Positions 3,316 through 24,426 of a stretch of 24,426 nucleotides of DNA are shown here, piece by piece; position 1 is the first letter of the stretch, and every line of letters begins with the position of its first letter. The stretch is from positions 1 to 24,426 of IMG/VR virus record IMGVR_UViG_3300029775_000018. The stretch is one strand, 5' to 3'. The position numbers were made by a program, and so were the translations under genes. The DNA is from a virus (lineage: Duplodnaviria > Caudoviricetes). Under the pieces are notes generated by a model. It worked only from the letters and a program-made list of their open reading frames with translations. It was not told where the DNA came from and did not search any database.

Positions 3316-3535
3316 CTTCCAGTATATGTAGCCAGTTACAACGTACCACGCCTATAAGGTCTACCGTTGGCTTACATTTACACTTTTTAAGTTCCACATC
3401 TGTAGCGGATAGAAATACGTGCTTACTTTCGCAATAGGCTACAGGGTCCTTACAAAGTTCATTATTAAGCCCCATACGTGGGTTGTCGGCTATCGTCTTA
3501 TAACGTGTCATTCTTTGTCGTTCCAGCCTTGCCAT
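3299..3535 (-). CDS. Hypothetical Cys-rich protein
   Basis: 78 aa; overlaps both neighbours as expected for coupled genes. Confidence 0.55.
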   Translation of the reverse strand: MARLERQRMTRYKTIADNPRMGLNNELCKDPVAYCESKHVFLSATDVELKKCKCKPTVDLIGVVRCNWLHILEGGKDG

Positions 3536-4137
3536 GCTTTAGCTTTACTTCCGCCTTTGATTTCGGTAGTAGGTTCGACCTCGTTTACGTAGTCGGTAAT
3601 GTATTCATTGGCGGTAGGAACGTCTAGTATTACGTCTGGTGTAATAACTAGGTATTCAGTAGCTGGAATTCCTTCACGCTCTTTATAATGCTGTATCTGT
3701 TGTGCCAGTTCGGAAGGCTTCATAGCGGTATTAGCTGGTTTATCATTAACGATTAAAGGTAATAGATATTCTGTTGTTTCTGTTTTAAGTGCTACGCCCG
3801 TTATTTTGAGTTTTACGCCTAGATATTCACCGAAGTAGGTAAATGGGTAAGGGGTAGTAGGTAAACTGTTCTGTGGGGCGTCTGTGAAGTCTGGGGCTAT
3901 ATTTTCGGCTACTTCATATAACCTAATGCTTTGTAGCTTTGTAGCTTCTTCAATCGTAAAGCTACTAGCTGGTTCGCTTAAGTCAGCGTAAGGCGGCCAG
4001 CCTTTAAAGTCTTCAAGGTTCTTTACGCATAGTCTTATTTTAGTAATGACAATAAATGGGTCTAGTGGCTTGTCTGTGTCTGGAAGTTCAGCTATAAAAA
4101 GTCCTACGTCCGTAAGTATGTCAGCACGGTATTTCAT
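3508..4137 (-). CDS. Hypothetical protein
   Basis: 209 aa ORF; AAGGA SD; ATGA overlap with the extended glucosaminidase frame. Confidence 0.7.
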   Translation of the reverse strand: MKYRADILTDVGLFIAELPDTDKPLDPFIVITKIRLCVKNLEDFKGWPPYADLSEPASSFTIEEATKLQSIRLYEVAENIAPDFTDAPQNSLPTTPYPFTYFGEYLGVKLKITGVALKTETTEYLLPLIVNDKPANTAMKPSELAQQIQHYKEREGIPATEYLVITPDVILDVPTANEYITDYVNEVEPTTEIKGGSKAKAWQGWNDKE

Positions 4138-4925
4138 TCGCTATCAGTCCTTTCTATTCGGTTTACAATGTTATTCATAATCTTAGTAACGTGTTCTTCC
4201 CACGTATCACGACCGTTATAATAAGTGTTTACGGCCGCTACGCTAGTACCTTAGTAGTACTTTCCGTCTGGGGTTAGGTACTCTGTAAGAAGGAAGTTAG
4301 CCACGTAGTCTATACAGTGGTCTAGGCTCTCAAACTGTGGACCATAGAAACCGAATATATTATTTTTTCTAAATTGGTGACGACCCCAGCCGCTTTCTTC
4401 GGCAGCTATTGCGGCCAGGAATACGGCGTCTATACCGTATTTATCCTGTGCCTGTATAAATAATGGGGCTAGTGGTTTTAAGTCGTATAATAAGCCTTTT
4501 TCTAGTTCTTCGGCTGTATAGTAATAAAGGTCTTCGTCTACCGTAACACTGTGAATATTACCAGCCCCACGACTAATAGCCACGGTAGTATCTGTATTAC
4601 TTGGTGTCTTATCAACGTCTTTCGTAGCTTCTTGTTCTGGATTACTAGCCTTTGTATCTGGACTTCCTGTAATTTCATTGTCCTTTGGTAACTCTGTGCC
4701 AGTTCTAAGGCTTGTTCCTTCTCTTTTGTCAGCGTTAATATTTCCTGTTGGTGGTTCATTATTTCCAACTCCATTTCTGCCGTTTGTAGTAGGGACTTCG
4801 GTATCTTCTCCCTCTTGTACGGTGGGCCTTTGCCCCGTTTCTGTTTTCGTTTCGTCATAGATAACTACCCCCAGTAGTACAAATAGTACGATTATGCACG
4901 TTATACGTGCCTGTGTTTTATTCAT
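4134..4925 (-). pseudogene. Membrane-anchored GH73-type glucosaminidase interrupted by one in-frame TAA (4251-4253)
   Basis: N-terminal TM helix, T/N/P/G-rich linker, then KYGIDAVFLAAIAAEESGWG...NNIFG; past the TAA the same frame reads GTSVAAVNTYYNGRDTWEEHVTKIMNNIVNRIERTDSE* and ends in an ATGA overlap with the next gene. Confidence 0.75.
4538..4858 (-). CDS. Candidate nested (overprinted) coiled-coil protein with C-terminal TM helix
   Basis: +1 frame inside the glucosaminidase linker; GGGGGT SD 8 nt before the ATG; basic N-terminus, heptad-like middle, ILPWLLVVGLVIFTVLR tail. Confidence 0.55.
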   Translation of the reverse strand: MTKRKQKRGKGPPYKREKIPKSLLQTAEMELEIMNHQQEILTLTKEKEQALELAQSYQRTMKLQEVQIQRLVIQNKKLRKTLIRHQVIQILPWLLVVGLVIFTVLR

Positions 4926-7410
4926 TGTTCGCCCTTTCTTTTAACCAGTCGTCAAGGTCCTTTTTATTCCCCCAGCTGTAGGCTACCGACGCTTCGGCTT
5001 CCAGCTGTATAGGGAAGTTAGGAAGTGGGGGGATTTCCATAACGCTTTGTTGCCATCTTGCGTATTTCTCTACCAGTTCGACGTCGTCGTCTATCTCGAC
5101 GATAATCTCGTCGTGTACCTGTGATACCATGTCGGTATGTCCGTGGTTCATAAAAGGCTCTGCGCTTAAGGCGTCTAGTGTTGCACGGTCGAAACCGTCC
5201 CATATAGGTACTTGTTTACCTGTATTGAAAAACGCCGTATCAAGACCGCATTTTTCATACATGGTATTCTGTGCTTTTTTCATAACGTCAGCCGCGGACC
5301 CTTGGATAGGTGTATTCTGGGCGCGTCTTTCGTCGTCGCTCCTGTAGTACCTATTACCACCGTTAATATTAGGTAGTAGTCGCTTAAAGCCGAATATCGT
5401 TTCAGCGTAGCCCGTTTCTCTAGCCTTAATCACGGCCGCCCTCTGATAACGTGGGATACCAGGGTAGGTAGTCATAACGGCGTCTACAAGCTTCTTACAC
5501 TCTGGTAACGACTTACGTATACCTTGTTTCTTAAAAGTCTTTTGTAGGGCGTGTTCTGTACCACCATATACAGACCCGAAGTTAGCGGCCTTGGCTCCAC
5601 TACGTTCATGTTTAGTAACTTCGCTTTCTGGTTTACCTTGCATAGTAGCGGCTGTTTTACGGTGTAGGTCTTCGTGGTTTCTAAAAGCGTTTAGCATTAC
5701 ATCACAGCTGGAAGCCCACGCCGTTAAGCGAAGTTCGAAGCCGCTTTCGTCTTCCAGTAACATTACTTTACCGGGCGCTGCCTTGTAGAAGTTACGTATA
5801 CCTAGTTCGTCATTATCTGGCCTTGGTACGTTTTGCCCGTTAGGACTACTAGAAGCAAGTCTAGCGGTTTCCGTCCACGGCTCATACTTTGCGTGTATCC
5901 TTCCTGTAACTTCATTAACGTATTTTTCACGTCCGTTAATATGAGAAGATAGAAGGGTACTGTACTTTTGTATTTCTTGCATAGCTTCAATAAATTTAAT
6001 ACCTTGGTCTTTGTAAGGGTGGAAGTCCCTTTGCGCTATACGAATAGCCCTTCTTTGGTGGGCGTCTAATTCGCCTGGTGCTTCTGGGTCTATGTCTTCC
6101 CAGCCGTCGGGTATATCTACTTCTAGGTATTTTTCTTCGTCTGGGTCAACTAGTTTATGTTCCAGCATAAAAATCATATCCATTAGGGCGTTACTATCTA
6201 AACTAGGGTCTTTAGTCTTATCCGACCACGCCGCCGCTGGTAGTTTCATGGTGTCGAAGATAAAACTTTTAACATCTTTCGTTTTACCACCTTTACCGAC
6301 GTTTAGATTTTCCACGCCTAGGCTAGCCGCTATTTCTTGCATTTCATTAGCTGCCTTTTCCTGTTGTATCTCGGCTTCTTCTCTTTTAATAGCTGCTATA
6401 TCCGTGTCCCAGTACATACCCCAGTACTCCATTAAACCCGTAACACGTGCGAAGGGCATTTCTATACCCTTTAGCCAATCCGAATAAGTAGGGTAGAGGG
6501 GGTTATTATTGCTTATCTGTTTCGCTACCTCGTCCCAATATAGATAGTGCTGTACAGCGTAGTCGCTATCTTCACAGCAGTAACTAATGGCGTCGTTTTC
6601 GTCGTTCGGCAATTCGTCAAAGAATAAAGCGTTATTTTTTTCAAGGACCGTATTAAAGTCGTTCATAGTTACGCCGAATATTTCTTTTGTCATAGGCTTT
6701 AGACCTTTACCTGTGTATGGGCGCTTAGGGTTCACTATCTTATGGGGTAGTAGAAGCTGGCTTATTCTTATCCACGCTAGAAAAGGGTCCACGCAAGGCA
6801 TTAGAATATATTTTCCATACTTAGCTGTAAACTTGGTTTCAAAGGATAGGTTTACGGCTATTTTAGTTATTGCTGGGTTAGTAAAGAATTCAGCTTCCAG
6901 AATGTCAAATATCCTTTTACGTGCTTCGCTTCTAGGTAACCCCGGTTCGAATTGGTTAGCCCCCGGATTGTCTATAAATATCGCTCTAGCTTCGTCGCTA
7001 GCCGCCGATAAACTTAAGGCGCTTACTTCGGCTTTCCATGGGTCTAAGTTCACGGACCTAGTCCAGCTGTCTAAGGCTTTACCTGTTACCGTGTTTCCGT
7101 CTTCGTCTTTGGGTGGTTCTCTGTGGTCTTTATCGCCGCTGGTTTCATAGTCAAAACCACCTAGTCCAGTTTCTTTACATCTTTGTATATAAGCCCGTAG
7201 GTCGTCTTCATTGGTAATAGCTTTGTAATCTTTAAAACCTTGGGGGCGTAACTTAGGCCATTTAATATTCCATACGCCGGGCTGTTTACGGTTCATAACG
7301 TCCTTAAGACTTTCTACAGTGCCTACAGCCTTTGTAGTTGTAGAAGCTGTAGGTTTTTTAACTGTATTAGCTAAACCACCACCCGTAGGAAATAGGCTAC
7401 TTAGTTTCAT
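4918..7410 (-). CDS. Phage family A DNA polymerase (3'-5' exonuclease + polymerase)
   Basis: ExoI GFDYETSG, ExoIII YCCEDS; TETARLASSSPNGQNVP; motif A DESGFELR; motif B RSGAKAANFGSVYG; NTPIQGSAAD; motif C VHDEI; no recognisable 5'-3' exonuclease domain. Confidence 0.93.
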   Translation of the reverse strand: MKLSSLFPTGGGLANTVKKPTASTTTKAVGTVESLKDVMNRKQPGVWNIKWPKLRPQGFKDYKAITNEDDLRAYIQRCKETGLGGFDYETSGDKDHREPPKDEDGNTVTGKALDSWTRSVNLDPWKAEVSALSLSAASDEARAIFIDNPGANQFEPGLPRSEARKRIFDILEAEFFTNPAITKIAVNLSFETKFTAKYGKYILMPCVDPFLAWIRISQLLLPHKIVNPKRPYTGKGLKPMTKEIFGVTMNDFNTVLEKNNALFFDELPNDENDAISYCCEDSDYAVQHYLYWDEVAKQISNNNPLYPTYSDWLKGIEMPFARVTGLMEYWGMYWDTDIAAIKREEAEIQQEKAANEMQEIAASLGVENLNVGKGGKTKDVKSFIFDTMKLPAAAWSDKTKDPSLDSNALMDMIFMLEHKLVDPDEEKYLEVDIPDGWEDIDPEAPGELDAHQRRAIRIAQRDFHPYKDQGIKFIEAMQEIQKYSTLLSSHINGREKYVNEVTGRIHAKYEPWTETARLASSSPNGQNVPRPDNDELGIRNFYKAAPGKVMLLEDESGFELRLTAWASSCDVMLNAFRNHEDLHRKTAATMQGKPESEVTKHERSGAKAANFGSVYGGTEHALQKTFKKQGIRKSLPECKKLVDAVMTTYPGIPRYQRAAVIKARETGYAETIFGFKRLLPNINGGNRYYRSDDERRAQNTPIQGSAADVMKKAQNTMYEKCGLDTAFFNTGKQVPIWDGFDRATLDALSAEPFMNHGHTDMVSQVHDEIIVEIDDDVELVEKYARWQQSVMEIPPLPNFPIQLEAEASVAYSWGNKKDLDDWLKERANNE

Positions 7411-16811: not shown

Positions 16812-17381
16812 TTACACCTTCCTTTTATTTTTATATTTCTTAAAGTATTCTTCTGGTCCTAGTTCTCTAAAGTCCGTGGCTCTTTGGTTGGCTTCTTCTC
16901 TTTTTTCAAGTGGGTAAACCCCTAAGTAGTAGCCTTTACCTTTGTGATATACTCGGACTTCGTAGCGCTGTTTGTCCTTTCGCCAGTGGACGCCCCTAAC
17001 CATAGGTAAGGTCGCTGGGTCGTTCTCTGGTGGCTTATAGACTTGTCCTATAGGTAGGTTTATTAAATTATCCCTTCTACAGTTAAGGCTATCGCCGTCC
17101 TTAAATGCTGTGTTCTCGCCACGTTTTGGTTTAGATAATACGCGGTGTAATAGTGGCTGCTTTTGTGGATAACCGGGTACGGGTTTGCTTTGGGCTGTAC
17201 CTCGTATATAGATAAGGTCGTTAGATGGGTGTACGAAACCGTACCAGCTACCGGGAAACGACTTTATATAATCTAGGTCCTCTACATCTACTAAAACTTC
17301 TAGGTATCCGTAACCCGCATTAGGTGGGGCGTCTACGAAGATAACGCCGACCTTGTCACGTATTACGTATTGATTTTTCAC
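16812..17381 (-). CDS. HNH-AP2 domain protein with degenerate HNH site
   Basis: LHRVL...TAFKDGDSLNCRRDNL (HNH_3-like) followed by AP2-like GVHWRKDKQRYEVRV...YLGVY. Confidence 0.75.
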   Translation of the reverse strand: MKNQYVIRDKVGVIFVDAPPNAGYGYLEVLVDVEDLDYIKSFPGSWYGFVHPSNDLIYIRGTAQSKPVPGYPQKQPLLHRVLSKPKRGENTAFKDGDSLNCRRDNLINLPIGQVYKPPENDPATLPMVRGVHWRKDKQRYEVRVYHKGKGYYLGVYPLEKREEANQRATDFRELGPEEYFKKYKNKRKV

Positions 17382-17393
17382 TCTTTCACCCCC

Positions 17394-19246
17394 TTACGGT
17401 TCTATAAGTGGTAAATTCTCGTCTAAAAATTCCTTTATACGTTCAGCTATAGCCTTGGCTACGGTTGTCGTTACAGCGTTTCCGAATTGCTTGTATGCTT
17501 GGCTATTGCTTACTACTTGGTTCCATGTATCCATTGGGAAGCCTTGAAGCCTTCCGTACTCCGTCGGTGTAAGCTTTCTAACCCTGTAACGGCTATAATC
17601 AAATACTTTTATATGGTGTGTTCCACCAGATACAGCGGTTACGGTAGGGCTTAAACCTTCTGGGTCGTGTACTCGTCGGCTGTGGTCGTGGCTCTTTATG
17701 TCTAACATTCCGACTACATCTATCTGTGGTTCTTCTACTAAAACCTTTGGACCAACACTTCTACCTAACAGGGTGGGGCTTATTCCCTCTGGACTGTAGA
17801 CCCTACGTTGACGCTCGTTATCGTTTAATACGTCTTTTGATATATCTGCAACTTTGATAATCTCACCGTCGGTAGGTTCTAGTATCTTTATCCCTTCGCC
17901 CTTATTAGTGGTTAGGGTAGGGGCTAGTCCGTCAGCGTGAAATACGTTACCGTTCATTCCTCTACCAGATGGATTACTATTAGCTACGTTCATAATTTCG
18001 GGCTGTTTTTCTAGCAATAAATTATCTTTTAGGACTGTAGTAAGCGTGTTACTTATATCATCTGGTCTTGGTTCTAGTTGCCGTATATTAGCCCATTTTT
18101 CTTTTACGTTTCCAGCTTCGTAATCTTTTCGGATAGCCTTACCGTATTCAGTTCTTACAGGTCTAAGTACGGCGCTATCTTCAAGTAGTAGCTTAGGTTC
18201 TTTATAGTCACTAGCCAGTAGCGTAGGGGTTTGTCCTACAGATGGGGTATTTTTACCGAAGTCTTTTGTATTGATAACTACAGCGTCTTCGATTACTTTT
18301 ACGCCTTGCCTACTCTGTCTTAAGGTGGGGCTAGCTTCGTCGTATACTCTAGGTTCTTTGTCATAGCCGAAAGTATCGTCTATAATTACGCCGTGTAGGT
18401 CTTGGGCTGTAAGTGTGAACATTTCTTCTTCGTCAGTCTTTGCACGTCTACCGTTTTGGCGTTTCTCTACCCGGTCGGGGGTAATAGTAGCGTGTACATA
18501 GCCTAGGCTTTCCAGCTTCTTTAAGGCTTGGTCTATAATGGTCCGTGCCTTTTCGTCGCTTATGTAGTACTTTTCGTCTACGTTAGTTTCTAAAACGCTG
18601 GATAACTTCGGTACGTAATCGTGCTGTTCAGTAGGGAATATAAATTCTGCGTCTATGTCGTCCCGGATACCTACAACGAAATACCTTTCCCTGTTCTGCG
18701 GTACGTCCCAATACTTAGAGTTGTAAAGCGTATAGTAGGCTTTATAGCCACGTTTGGCGTATTCCGTTTCTAGTATGGGAAGATATTTTCTTAATGCTTT
18801 TACGTTTTCGGCCATTATTACTAGCGGTCGCTTCTGGCTCTCTCTCTCTCTGTAGCTTCATCAAGTAGTCGCATTATTTCGAAGAACAGACCACTACGAT
18901 TAGCAGCTTTAAAATCGTCGCTTTGACAATTAGGGCAATTCTGATTATTTGTATCAAGTTTCCACTTAGTACCACAGGTGTTACATTCGGTTTCCATTCC
19001 CGCCTGGTTACCAGCGACGCTAAGGTCTTGACAAGGGAAGCCGAAAGTCCACGCTGTGGCCTTTGGTACGTCCTCTATAGTCATTGTGGTAATGTCTTTT
19101 TCTTCTACGTGGTCGCCTACATTTTCTTTGTATGTCTGTACAGCGTATTTATCAAAGTCCCAGGCTTTTTCTATATCAAAACCAGCGTCCTTAAAACCTA
19201 TACCTAGACCACCAGCACCACAAAAGAAGTCGTTTAATGTGTACAA
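17394..19246 (-). pseudogene. C5-cytosine DNA methyltransferase with multi-TRD region, frameshifted at an (AG)7 tract (ORFs 18821..19246 and 17394..18815)
   Basis: Motif I FCGAGG, IV GFPCQ and V RSGLFFE in the upstream ORF (likely TTG start at 19246 after AGGAG); VI ENV, VIII PQNRER, IX RKLTP.E..RLQGF and X YKQFGNAV in the downstream ORF. Confidence 0.88.
18838..18851. repeat. (CT)7 / (AG)7 dinucleotide microsatellite at the MTase frameshift
   Basis: Plus strand ctctctctctctct; removing one unit restores the reading frame. Confidence 0.95.
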
Positions 19247-20691
19247 TGTGTATTGCTCCTTTCTGTAGGCTGTTCGCATAACGGACAAATACCGCCCGTT
19301 TCAGCCCATGCTGTTTGTAGTTCCTCTGTAGCTTTACTAACTTCTAATATCGCTTCGCCTAAAAGCTGCTTACGGTCTTCTACAGTACGGGTTGCGTCTT
19401 CATGCTTACTAAGTAACGCTATAAGACCCTGTATTTTTAATTCTGTAGAAGTACAAGCCGTTATTTTGCCTTTTAAGGCGTTTGTAGGCTCTAGGCTAGC
19501 TAGTCTATCAATTAATGTTTTCTGTGCGTTCTGGGTTACCCTGTGCTTTCCTAGTAGGGTATTAAGCTGTTCACTATTGGTAAAATTCCTTACTACATTA
19601 GCGACAAGATTTATCGTGTCAAGAACCTTGTCAGCGGCCAGTATAGTGGCTTTGTGGCGTTTAATTAGTTCCTGTAAACCCCTGTAACGTGTCTGTATGT
19701 CCTTTAACTCTATTAGCCTAACTTCCCAATGGCTTAGGTCTTTTGTACGCTGTAACAGGCTAGGAACGTCCTTTAAATCTCGTATTAATTGGCTAGCGTT
19801 CTTACTGTCGTTTACGGCCTTCCAAAAGTCGTCTTGTAGCTTTTCTATAATCTGCTTACGGTCTTCCGATAGTCCCACAGCTTTTAGGTTTATTAGAAGG
19901 GCTGGGACCATCTGTAAAGGCTCTAATTTTTGATTAAGTTCTACAATTCGATTAGTTAGGGCTTCGTGTTGGTTCTTTTTCTCTACTAAGTCCTTTTGTA
20001 GGGATAGATTACTTTCTACTGTCTGGAAGCGTATTTCTAATCCCTCTAGGACGTTGTAATAGTCGTCTACCTCTAGGTACTCTAAAAGCTCTACGTCTAG
20101 CTGTCCTATCTGTTTGTCTGCCTGTGCTAATTCGGTTCTAGTATTATGGGTCCGTTTGTTTACGGCTCCTATGGCCTTGTCTACGACCTCTGTACCAGCC
20201 AATTTACCTAATACTTTCGCCCCGGTTCCACCTGTTTCCGATAGAAGGAAGGGGGGGTCTAACTGGAAGGCGAAGTTTAAACAGATTTCGAAGTTGTCGC
20301 CGTAGGTCTGCTTTGTAAGTCCTAGGGCGTCTTTAATTTCCTGTGGTACCTCTGCTTTTTCCCATGGTTCGGGGTATAAACTGTGTATATATGTCGTTTT
20401 ACCTTTGCGTCTGGTCTTCGTGATACTAACGCCGTTGTCAAAGTTAACTGTTACTTCTGCCTGTTCTTCCTGTTCCTTGATAGAACCGTCGGCGTTTCTT
20501 ACTGTGTATAAGAAGCCTTCGCCCTGTGGTTCGTTAAAAGCCAACCAGCGAAGCGCTCTTATAACGGCTGTTTTACCAGCGTCGCTAGGTCCCGTAATTA
20601 CGGTAAGTCCGGGGGATAGGTTAAAGCTGCTTTCCTTGTGGCTTTGAAACCCTTTTATAACTACGTCTTTAATCTCTAGCACTCTGGACAT
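19234..20691 (-). CDS. Rad50/SbcC ABC-ATPase, N-terminal half ending in a zinc-hook-like CxxC
   Basis: IKGFQSH, Walker A GPSDAGKT, Q-loop NFAFQLD, long helical region, CPLC close to the C-terminus; no signature or Walker B. Confidence 0.87.
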   Translation of the reverse strand: MSRVLEIKDVVIKGFQSHKESSFNLSPGLTVITGPSDAGKTAVIRALRWLAFNEPQGEGFLYTVRNADGSIKEQEEQAEVTVNFDNGVSITKTRRKGKTTYIHSLYPEPWEKAEVPQEIKDALGLTKQTYGDNFEICLNFAFQLDPPFLLSETGGTGAKVLGKLAGTEVVDKAIGAVNKRTHNTRTELAQADKQIGQLDVELLEYLEVDDYYNVLEGLEIRFQTVESNLSLQKDLVEKKNQHEALTNRIVELNQKLEPLQMVPALLINLKAVGLSEDRKQIIEKLQDDFWKAVNDSKNASQLIRDLKDVPSLLQRTKDLSHWEVRLIELKDIQTRYRGLQELIKRHKATILAADKVLDTINLVANVVRNFTNSEQLNTLLGKHRVTQNAQKTLIDRLASLEPTNALKGKITACTSTELKIQGLIALLSKHEDATRTVEDRKQLLGEAILEVSKATEELQTAWAETGGICPLCEQPTERSNTHCTH

Positions 20692-22644: not shown

Positions 22645-22953
22645 ATGTTAGGTAAGAAAATATGTGTATACTGTGGTAAAAAAGCTAAACTTAATACTAA
22701 TAATATTTGTACAGATTGCCAGAAGGTGCTATTTCCGTTATTTCAGCGTGATACGGCTTTAATAAACGAAAGTCTACAGATAATGGAAACGTCGAGAAAT
22801 AAAGAAACAATACTAGGTAGACGTGATTTTATATTAGCTGTATGTAACAGAATTCAGGTAGATTATTTAGATATAGGTATAGAATTATTTGTAGATATTC
22901 CAGCTGTAATAAAGCACGCCAACGACTTACTTATAACAAGATTATCGGAATAA
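22645..22953 (+). CDS. Hypothetical accessory protein with N-terminal zinc finger
   Basis: CVYC...CTDC; AAGGTGG SD; own promoter; AT-rich. Confidence 0.65.
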   Translation: MLGKKICVYCGKKAKLNTNNICTDCQKVLFPLFQRDTALINESLQIMETSRNKETILGRRDFILAVCNRIQVDYLDIGIELFVDIPAVIKHANDLLITRLSE

Positions 22954-23451
22954 TTGGTCGTAAAGTCTACGTAGTTCATGTTTCATAAGTTCGGGTAAAA
23001 CTTCTTCTATTTTCATCATAGATTTATCAAACATATGGGCACCCTCTATAACCTTACCAGTAAGGACCATTCCAGTTTTGTGACCTGGTATGTAATGGAA
23101 GGTACCGCTACGCCATTCGCCGGGAACGAAACGCCCTTTCTTTTGGGTAAAACCTTCCTCTACAGCTGCGGCGTACTCTACGTTAGTTCCGTACACAACA
23201 TAAGAAGTTTTACCTATTTGCAACTTAAAATAACTTTCTGGTGCGCCGAATTGTAAACTGTTCTGCAATCGACCTGTACGTTTAGGTGTTTTGTCGTACG
23301 CTTCTTCCAGCCCTGCCATGGCGGCACTACGAAGTACCCGACTATGTAAAGTTTCTAGTTCAGCCTTACTACAGGTTTTATTTAACCAATCTATCCATTT
23401 ATCGAAATTCTTATCTAACTTAAAATATTTGTTTTTAGCCATACGAAACAC
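22942..23451 (-). CDS. HK97 gp10-like (neck/tail-completion family) protein
   Basis: TPKRTGRLQNS...VYGTNVEYAAAVEEG...G.HMF; start may be ATG 23442 after AAGGAG. Confidence 0.78.
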   Translation of the reverse strand: MFRMAKNKYFKLDKNFDKWIDWLNKTCSKAELETLHSRVLRSAAMAGLEEAYDKTPKRTGRLQNSLQFGAPESYFKLQIGKTSYVVYGTNVEYAAAVEEGFTQKKGRFVPGEWRSGTFHYIPGHKTGMVLTGKVIEGAHMFDKSMMKIEEVLPELMKHELRRLYDQLFR

Positions 23452-23462
23452 TCCTTTAAAAT

Positions 23463-23490
23463 ATTATACCACGGTAAAGGGTGTTGTCAA
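23463..23490 (-). promoter_or_regulatory. Sigma-A promoter for the gp10-like gene
   Basis: TTGACA-16 nt-TATAAT with TGn extended -10. Confidence 0.7.
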
Positions 23491-23821
23491 TAAGAAAACC
23501 AATTGTCTTACAGTCATAAAACGATGGTCAAAAAATATATAAAATCAAAAAATTAAGAAGGGGGTAGTAGGGTCTACTATTAAAACAACCAATGTAAAAG
23601 TTATATACCCCCCTAAAAAATTTAACAACCAATATATTATATAATATATATATAAACTAATAAATAATATATTATATATAGTATATAGTTAGTATCTATT
23701 AAGTATAGTATGAAATACTAGAGGGTTTTATAGCTGTAGTTCTTCTTGTTTTAGGCTTTTAAATTGTACTTCGTTTTACTACATTCCGTACTACGAAGCC
23801 CCAATAAACAGGGTATAAAAT

Positions 23822-23847
23822 AGAGTATTAAAGAGTACAAAAGAGTA
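23822..23847 (+). repeat. Three AGAGTA direct repeats at 10-bp period
   Basis: AGAGTAttaaAGAGTAcaaaAGAGTA. Confidence 0.8.
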
Positions 23848-23862
23848 ATTCACAAACAAAGG

Positions 23863-23906
23863 TAAACCCCTACAAGTTCAGCGTTTAAGCCACTTCTAGG
23901 GGTTTA
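23863..23906. repeat. 15-bp inverted repeat near the putative prophage end
   Basis: TAAACCCCTACAAGT-14 nt-ACTTCTAGGGGTTTA, one mismatch. Confidence 0.75.
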
Positions 23907-24018
23907 TATAGATAGTTTTAATGACATTATACCGGGTGAACTTAATCACGATGAAATTACAATATTTCCACCACATCCAAGGGATATAATGTAGTTATTG
24001 TATCAATACAATAAATTG

Positions 24019-24062
24019 AAAAAAATCTCTTCACTTACAAAATAAGATGAAGAGATTTTTTT
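24019..24062. terminator. Intrinsic bidirectional terminator
   Basis: Perfect 15-bp arms AAAAAAATCTCTTCA / TGAAGAGATTTTTTT. Confidence 0.85.
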
Positions 24063-24136
24063 GTAAGCTACTATAAACGGGTATATAGTTATCATACTTA
24101 AGCAAAGTAAATAATTTTTTTTATTTTCTATAATGC

Positions 24137-24165
24137 TTGAAAAATTTGTAATAAAATGTTAAAAT
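24137..24165 (+). promoter_or_regulatory. Possible sigma-A promoter
   Basis: TTGAAA-17 nt-TAAAAT with TGn; AT-rich context lowers specificity. Confidence 0.45.
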
Positions 24166-24208
24166 TGGACGAGGACTATAAAATGAATTTAGTTCTGGAG
24201 GAAAGATT

Positions 24209-24424
24209 GTGAAAAAATTAATTACTTTTTTAGATGCTGGAAAATATGAAAATGTTTTTTATAGTTATAATGATAAAAAGGTATATACTAAGTTTGTACA
24301 AGAAGCAGTATGTAATATTGTTGGCAGCGATACACAAGTTATAATATTTATTTTTAAAAAAAATGCTTGTATAGGTGAAATAAAAAACAGTTGTCCTGAT
24401 TATTGGATAGATGATAATATATAA
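24209..24424 (+). pseudogene. Short ORF resembling the N-terminus of TM1812/Csx1-type CARF CRISPR-associated proteins
   Basis: GGAGG SD; KKLITFLDAGKY..V.Y....K...TKFVQEAV recalls the FLGxGxY...TxFVQEAL start of that family; stops after 71 aa. Confidence 0.45.
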
Positions 24425-24426
24425 TC

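Follow-up and report, generated by a model that had tools for sequence, protein, structure and literature searches.

Fully nested genes are known in tailed phages mainly from lysis genes; the nested gene considered here lies in a replication arm. The locus raises the question of whether an open reading frame (ORF) that runs through the linker of a cell-wall hydrolase gene is a gene in its own right and, if so, whether its product serves that hydrolase. The stretch of DNA analysed (the window) is a 24.4-kb virus record that carries the replication arm of a phBC6A51-like phage with its genes on the minus strand, among them SbcC/D-like genes, a resolvase, a helicase, a primase-MCM and a family A DNA polymerase (PolA). 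A sequence-only reading had described a 106-codon ORF in the +1 frame of the hydrolase linker, preceded at a distance of 8 nt by a GGGGGT Shine-Dalgarno (SD) sequence, and both were confirmed on the minus strand (Table 1).

Table 1. Features of the hydrolase locus in the window (TM, transmembrane; SD, Shine-Dalgarno).
Feature	Position	Strand	Remarks
Hydrolase gene as it stands, 224 aa	4251..4925	-	N-terminal TM, linker, truncated GH73 (LytB-like) domain
Hydrolase N-terminal TM helix	4857..4904	-	residues 8-23; kept in homologues
Low-complexity linker and start of GH73 extension	4539..4856	-	out-of-frame shadow of the inner gene
Premature TAA	4251..4253	-	in-frame; Lys codon in relatives; shortens the GH73 gene by 39 codons
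Untranslated GH73 remainder	4134..4250	-	past the premature stop; includes conserved Y-N-G..W and the last helix
Inner gene, 106 aa, +1 to the hydrolase frame	4538..4858	-	ATG 4858, TAG 4538; basic head, long helix, C-terminal membrane anchor
Inner-gene SD, GGGGGT	4867..4872	-	8-nt spacer; written in hydrolase TM codons (Leu-Gly-Val)
Head motif GKGPPYKRE	4808..4834	-	conserved; clostridial type PYKRE, other type GKGY[EK]RR
Predicted C-terminal TM helix of the inner protein	4547..4597	-	residues 88-104; basic residues before, 2 residues after
Family A DNA polymerase gene	4918..7410	-	directly upstream; 8-nt overlap with the hydrolase start
209-aa gene, no known family	3508..4137	-	downstream of the hydrolase; conserved, 18/20 loci

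The inner ORF covers hydrolase codons 23-129; it begins where the TM helix ends and stops where the catalytic region starts. As had been stated earlier, its SD is of a form that other genes use: GGGGGT also stands upstream of 7 of the 26 other window ORFs examined. The predicted pairing of the inner SD (-9.8 kcal/mol) is equalled or exceeded at 4% of 277 minus-strand ATGs. Recodings that chose codons at random for an unchanged hydrolase protein had an open +1 frame in 145 of 100,000 cases, and in 117 of 30,000 with PolA-only codon usage. An open frame combined with an equal C-terminal hydrophobic stretch arose in 3 of 30,000 recodings of the window, and in none of seven loci did more than 3 of 30,000 synonymous recodings give an open frame with a TM segment. 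The longest +1 open run among 11 other window genes is 77 codons.

Variation within the overlap, a check proposed in the sequence-only reading, points to selection on the inner frame. Among the 39 distinct overlap variants listed, 20 leave the inner protein unchanged and 8 the hydrolase, against an expected silent share of 0.23-0.30 for both frames. The inner frame thus has an excess (p 1e-4 to 4e-3, values that are approximate because strains share variants and same-codon neighbours were scored singly), and the hydrolase frame has none. Inner third positions hold 19 of the 39 overlap variants listed; in the GH73 domain outside the overlap, hydrolase third positions hold 14 of the 19 variants listed. 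The test pools distinct strain substitutions among the variants listed, and it leaves out two X13 rows beside a compensating indel pair in the overlap, as well as one row of that kind from the GH73 part. Between L015 and L019, six of the seven base differences fall at inner third positions, changing one inner and six hydrolase residues. One X7 contig has 172 overlap bases replaced by 121 (a loss of 51) with both frames kept. T occupies 1-11% of third positions in nested copies versus 13-28% in stand-alone copies; through this avoidance the hydrolase frame stays open, which also explains the composition of its Thr/Gly/Glu-rich linker.

All eight PolA-adjacent GH73 genes with an intact start (L010, L013, L014, L015, L017, L018, L019 and the window) are nested: each holds an open +1 ORF with an SD, an ATG and a C-terminal TM segment, and the third frame contains 8-14 stops. 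Of the remaining loci, L020 is a partial ninth GH73 case, L012 and L016 duplicate others, and the L025 sequence stops within the polymerase. In more distant relatives a 3D domain takes the place of GH73 and the nest is still present. The 24 3D loci examined have it in 8/8 cases linked to this polymerase (three of which repeat L030, L032 and vB_BboS-125) and in 0/16 others; no nested ORF was found in any of 23 hydrolase controls, i.e. these 16 other 3D loci, the 3D genes of four named phages and three other GH73 genes. In 16/16 nested loci both frames are open, the start codon is kept, an SD-like run lies 7-10 nt upstream and the inner gene is wholly inside the hydrolase gene, so that the check on homologues suggested earlier also came out in favour of a gene. 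The layout is fixed: the SD is written in the TM codons of the hydrolase, and the first conserved codons of the catalytic region form the inner stop in all 14 loci examined.

Gene callers usually miss embedded inner genes like Rz1 (PMC6139136). The isolated phage vB_BboS-125, which infects Bacillus bogoriensis, offers a case in its published annotation, where the inner gene was overlooked: within the gene for the annotated 3D protein gp54 lies a 133-aa inner ORF, at 36510-36911 of the record, that was not annotated, and the terms '3D domain', 'overlap' and 'holin' are absent from the main text of the genome paper (PMC6375668). From proteins alone, the shadow that the PYKRE head motif casts in the hydrolase frame (T-V-Q-[TE]-G) is seen in 24 of 28 GH73 homologues of at least 237 aa versus 1 of 27 shorter ones, the pattern having been defined after alignment. 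In one GH73 homologue, P0023 (208 aa), the shadow motif is kept but the linker has only about half the length; this nest has been shortened or is decaying. All 20 loci surveyed contain an inner-type ORF, 18 contain the 209-aa gene and 14 a hydrolase. Five of the 20 inner-type ORFs failed to cluster at E 1e-4, and position and anatomy were used to assign them; one of these five, L014, matches the inner profile at E 5e-5. The inner gene follows PolA directly or one gene later in the clostridial group; in 3D-type and Bacillus phages it lies several genes past the polymerase, among accessory genes.

The inner gene also occurs without a hydrolase, in 10 loci in which the hydrolase frame is closed by 5-13 stops. 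In L009, L024 and L026-L029 (five of these six copies being near-identical) a clear homologue with 6-9 hydrolase-frame stops stands directly between the polymerase and the 209-aa gene, and a second type of stand-alone gene is found in L011, L031, phBC6A51 (BC1866) and PHBA67-T. Searches of five stand-alone genomes, three of them represented by records only 54-61% complete, gave no 3D gene and a single GH73 domain, that of the L009 endolysin beside the holin in the lysis cassette. The L009 genome, 97% complete and with this endolysin as its sole GH73, and the complete phBC6A51 record are likewise devoid of a 3D gene. The inner gene is therefore the conserved partner, which persists when the hydrolase is swapped or lost, and its product very probably functions without the hydrolase. 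That no gene exists and the frame is open by chance is scarcely credible: linker composition alone does leave the +1 frame open in up to ~4% of recodings for some relatives, but inner-frame selection, the kept SD and start codon, stand-alone homologues called as genes and the 23 empty controls oppose it. The inner ORF is almost certainly a real gene and belongs to a previously unannotated family, with an open frame, an SD, purifying selection and retention across GH73, 3D and hydrolase-free loci.

On a PolA tree of 17 rows, the nested and stand-alone arrangements are separated by four state changes, with stand-alone loci in four separate lineages. The window groups with L009/L027 at 98/96 in this tree and at 93/92 in one of 19 rows, and the other members of the clade as well as both outgroups are nested. 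A quick tree left this grouping of the window open, and a single nested-GH73 clade was not rejected by the AU test (p 0.27). This history rests on the polymerase tree, the root of which is uncertain; phage genomes are mosaic, and the tree need not track the inner locus. The simplest reading is one old nest, one 3D-for-GH73 swap and repeated loss of the hydrolase. On balance, temperate phages of Bacilli and Clostridia appear to carry an old dual-coding cassette of a core, tail-anchored effector gene and a hydrolase spacer, in which 3D and GH73 domains were exchanged at the inner stop and from which the hydrolase was deleted at least four times, freeing the inner gene. If this is true, the locus provides a traceable natural history of an overlap kept, re-partnered and undone, and it brings to light a family, so far unannotated, whose role would be to anchor phage replication or to stall host division. 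Since the gene is nested in two unrelated enzymes and also free-standing, the origin and the loss of the overlap are directly testable. The hydrolase linker would be largely a by-product, i.e. the other-frame reading of the inner gene, which supplies a free spacer for the catalytic domain that follows; what looks like a low-complexity linker can be a second gene read out of frame.

The hydrolase of the window matches PF01832 at 34.2 bits (cut-off 30.2). Its catalytic Glu motif is present: E177 is invariant in 33 sequences, and its A-x-E-S motif aligns with the nearest solved structures, 7pj3 and 4q2w, which we take to be pneumococcal LytB. A premature TAA, missed in the sequence-only reading, cuts off the C-terminal aromatic motif and helix, leaving the domain incomplete in the window and complete in relatives, and the inner gene is intact despite this stop. 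Three close homologues are 263 aa long with Lys at the stop site, where runs X5 and X7 also have a sense base; L016, probably of the same assembly source as the window, shares the TAA. Recoding of the codon was rejected, as relatives simply carry a Lys codon. The 3D/Sps domains (PF06725) that replace GH73 elsewhere belong to muralytic enzymes linked to growth resumption, and a 3D-domain protein, YorM, is encoded in prophage SPbeta (PMC1084345). In contrast to known GH73 and 3D enzymes, the linker here doubles as a second gene and the GH73 domain of the window is shortened by a stop.

Some other GH73 loci deserve mention. In L020 (190-240) the GH73 frame breaks just past the inner stop with the inner ORF intact, perhaps through an assembly error. 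Closely similar GH73 domains that share the GAG..NV.V extension and have no nested ORF occur in L021 (1183-2208) and L022 (4446-5426), in contexts that do not look like phage; the domain that entered the phage gene by the swap may have come from such a type.

Two features described earlier were confirmed in the inner protein: a basic N-terminus, with a net charge of +9 over 25 residues, and a C-terminal TM helix (residues 88-104, KD 2.42). The coiled coil that had also been proposed holds in part: AlphaFold2 (18-row alignment) predicts one long helix over residues 21-105 (pLDDT 77, pTM 0.32), whereas heptad support is only moderate in the window, where the score is reached by 23 of 200 shuffles. 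The heptad signal is uneven among relatives (0 of 200 shuffles for L017 and L041). The most hydrophobic 17-mer lies at most 6 residues from the C-terminus in 22/22 inner-type proteins scored. Since in these same 22 proteins basic residues precede the TM helix and at most 6 residues follow it, the helix and head are predicted to face the cytoplasm; the hydrolase domain would face the wall.

Family searches with the inner protein (Pfam, PHROGs, NCBIfam and PDB sequences) returned coiled-coil noise or unnamed families only, and its best ESM Atlas match (0.89) is likewise unnamed. Two stand-alone copies from Bacillus cereus match phrog_24365, a PHROG without assigned function. A profile search of 1.8 billion representatives yielded 24 proteins, most of them with the anatomy of the inner protein; scans of viral contigs with the hydrolase protein alone or with a 4-row inner alignment gave no useful loci. 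The sequence link between the PYKRE and GKGY types is weak (probability 8%), and few cross-scores exceed all shuffled decoys. Homology is favoured because both motifs are combined in the window (GKGPPYKRE) and in P0088 (GKGTPYKRE..WEQEK). P0088 (190 aa, a single sequence on one 39.9-kb contig) joins an inner-type protein and a 3D domain and is a candidate fusion or a frameshift error.

A literature search that covered sources outside the subscription journals found no paper on the inner/hydrolase pair. An overlap of comparable form is Hol187, which was reportedly described by Loessner et al. in 1999 within ply187 of Staphylococcus aureus phage 187. That pair consists of an endolysin and a holin-like protein, whereas here an anchored or exported hydrolase is encoded in the replication arm, with lysis cassettes elsewhere; unlike Hol187, the inner gene is found with either of two catalytic domains and also with no enclosing gene. 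The comparison with lambda Rz/Rz1 made in the sequence-only reading fits as regards gene layout, a +1 gene embedded in an envelope gene, and fails as regards the products. In Gram-negative hosts the lipoprotein Rz1 sits in the outer membrane and binds Rz in the periplasm (PMC6139136). The inner protein has no lipobox, carries a C-terminal TM helix and a body predicted to be cytoplasmic, so that its soluble part and that of the hydrolase lie on opposite sides of the membrane in the prediction, and it occurs without its partner. Membership of the spanins was rejected: the window inner protein has neither Cys nor an N-terminal hydrophobic stretch, its TM helix being at the C-terminus, and its gene lies in the replication arm rather than a lysis cassette and is separable from the hydrolase gene (10 stand-alone loci). 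PMC3111421 concerns an in-frame nest and does not apply as a precedent.

Across this phage group the inner protein is more constant than the hydrolase, which makes it a promising candidate for a phage-host or phage-membrane function not yet described. Of the three functions put forward earlier, membrane anchoring of replication is the best guess and division interference the second. By analogy, we tentatively regard the inner protein as a replication tether. It would be translated from the replication-operon mRNA via its own SD and form a tail-anchored helical rod that may oligomerise via the helix. The basic head (PYKRE..LE) would sit ~60-70 residues from the membrane and bind a cytoplasmic target, and the rod would likely hold phage DNA or the replication machinery at the inner, cytoplasmic side of the membrane, with no need for the hydrolase. 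The tether is preferred because of the replication operon, the basic head and, in the clostridial group, a place after the polymerase like that of phi29 gene 1. The location in a replication operon rather than a lysis cassette, as claimed in the sequence-only reading, was borne out: the GH73 gene follows the polymerase, and lysis cassettes lie elsewhere in three genomes. The model for the inner protein, phi29 p1, is a small protein encoded directly after the DNA polymerase gene; it is reported to be membrane-associated, needed for efficient replication and FtsZ-associated (PMC11476376). Homology to p1 is not detectable, however (probability 0.3%), and membership of its family was rejected. The gene for p1 is not nested, the protein has no comparable C-terminal hydrophobic run or clear tail anchor and no basic head, and it is tied to protein-primed replication by a terminal protein, which is apparently unused here (PolA, primase-MCM). 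The location of the inner gene several genes past the polymerase in 3D-type and Bacillus phages also speaks against a tether.

Unlikely, and second to the tether, is a division inhibitor, in which the anchored helix would offer the basic head to a divisome or wall-synthesis protein and stall septation. The tail-anchored helical anatomy, the position of the gene in the middle region and its independence of the hydrolase all suit such a role, and the two readings may overlap because phi29 p1 itself associates with FtsZ (PMC11476376). No match to a division-protein family rose above noise, though, and the head motif differs by type, which could follow a phage partner as well as a host partner.

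The two-component envelope module proposed in the sequence-only reading, where the inner protein would bind, position or activate the glucosaminidase via TM-TM contact, is quite unlikely. The two are co-encoded in 14/20 loci, the nest is old, and P0088 unites an inner-type protein and a 3D domain in one chain, although it is a single sequence from one contig. The claim went unsupported because the conserved gene is the inner one: it stands alone in 10 loci of four lineages, it tolerates a swap between unrelated catalytic domains (3D for GH73), and its ORF is intact where the hydrolase is truncated (window) or frameshifted (L020).

A role in lysis timing, as an XhlA-like holin helper or a Hol187-like embedded holin, is improbable. 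SPP1 gp24.1 and PBSX XhlA are also proteins of ~90 residues with a single C-terminal TM helix (PMC6316719), one of 15 inner-type proteins matches PF10779 weakly (E 0.016), and 4 of 18 members match PHROG 1193 'hemolysin' (best E 3e-4). Yet XhlA and gp24.1 are encoded in lysis cassettes and act with the holin (PMC6316719), unlike the inner gene. Membership of PF10779 was rejected, even with a C-terminal TM helix as in that family: the best score (15.8 bits) is below the cut-off of 34.7 and no better than other coiled-coil matches, and the gene is not beside a holin or endolysin. In phBC6A51 the holin and endolysin are adjoined by a true XhlA (BC1909), and the genome also holds the stand-alone BC1866, which the XhlA model does not match; vB_BboS-125 and the L009 genome carry separate lysis cassettes. 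Lysis roles are less likely on account of these three genomes and the true XhlA.

Superinfection exclusion by a membrane protein made during phage growth is very improbable. It would suit a small membrane protein from a temperate phage group, but at most 6 residues lie outside the membrane and the gene is inside the replication operon, where a scan for promoters and terminators near the inner gene gave 12 signals versus 8.8 expected, i.e. chance level. Such a site without signals above chance makes expression in the lysogen unlikely. Most improbable of these roles is that the overlap serves a frameshift from the inner to the hydrolase frame near the inner stop, yielding a cytoplasmic helix-TM-hydrolase fusion: the inner stop coincides with the first conserved catalytic codons in all 14 loci examined and P0088 has exactly this layout, but the 14 junctions share no slippery run by eye, P0088 is a singleton known from protein alone, other matches of the same search (P0081, P0082 and P0093) look like chimeric assemblies, and stand-alone copies exist without a hydrolase.

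The nearest named relatives of the window are the Bacillus phages phBC6A51, PHBA67-T and vB_BboS-125 (polymerase 47-50%, primase-MCM 66%), and still closer relatives are found in Clostridia genome bins. Of 399 host-class genomes scanned with a polymerase profile, only the starting genome gave a match. The phage group is temperate; phBC6A51, for example, is a prophage that encodes a recombinase. The 209-aa neighbour carries a C-terminal KAW.GW motif, lies 0-2 genes after the inner gene or its enclosing hydrolase and has no Pfam, PHROG, NCBIfam, PDB or Atlas match. It was ruled out as an obligate partner, as it was not found in phBC6A51 or PHBA67-T.

Several further observations concern these genomes. 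The window contains a C5 cytosine methyltransferase split over two adjacent ORFs of 155 and 473 aa (17394-19288, minus strand), which an HNH/AP2 gene adjoins (16812-17381). At 22645-24426, upstream of Rha and HTH regulators, lie a plus-strand 102-aa ORF, an HK97-gp10-like ORF (22942-23451, minus strand) and a long ORF-free stretch. In L030 (7525-8238), ~700 bases split the polymerase gene, possibly an intron or an inserted endonuclease. L071 (208-1956; G404:C1:50207-51955) holds two ORFs that immediately precede the lysis cassette in the L009 phage, one of 116 aa and one of 376 aa that resembles a reverse transcriptase; judged by eye, they form a diversity-generating retroelement.
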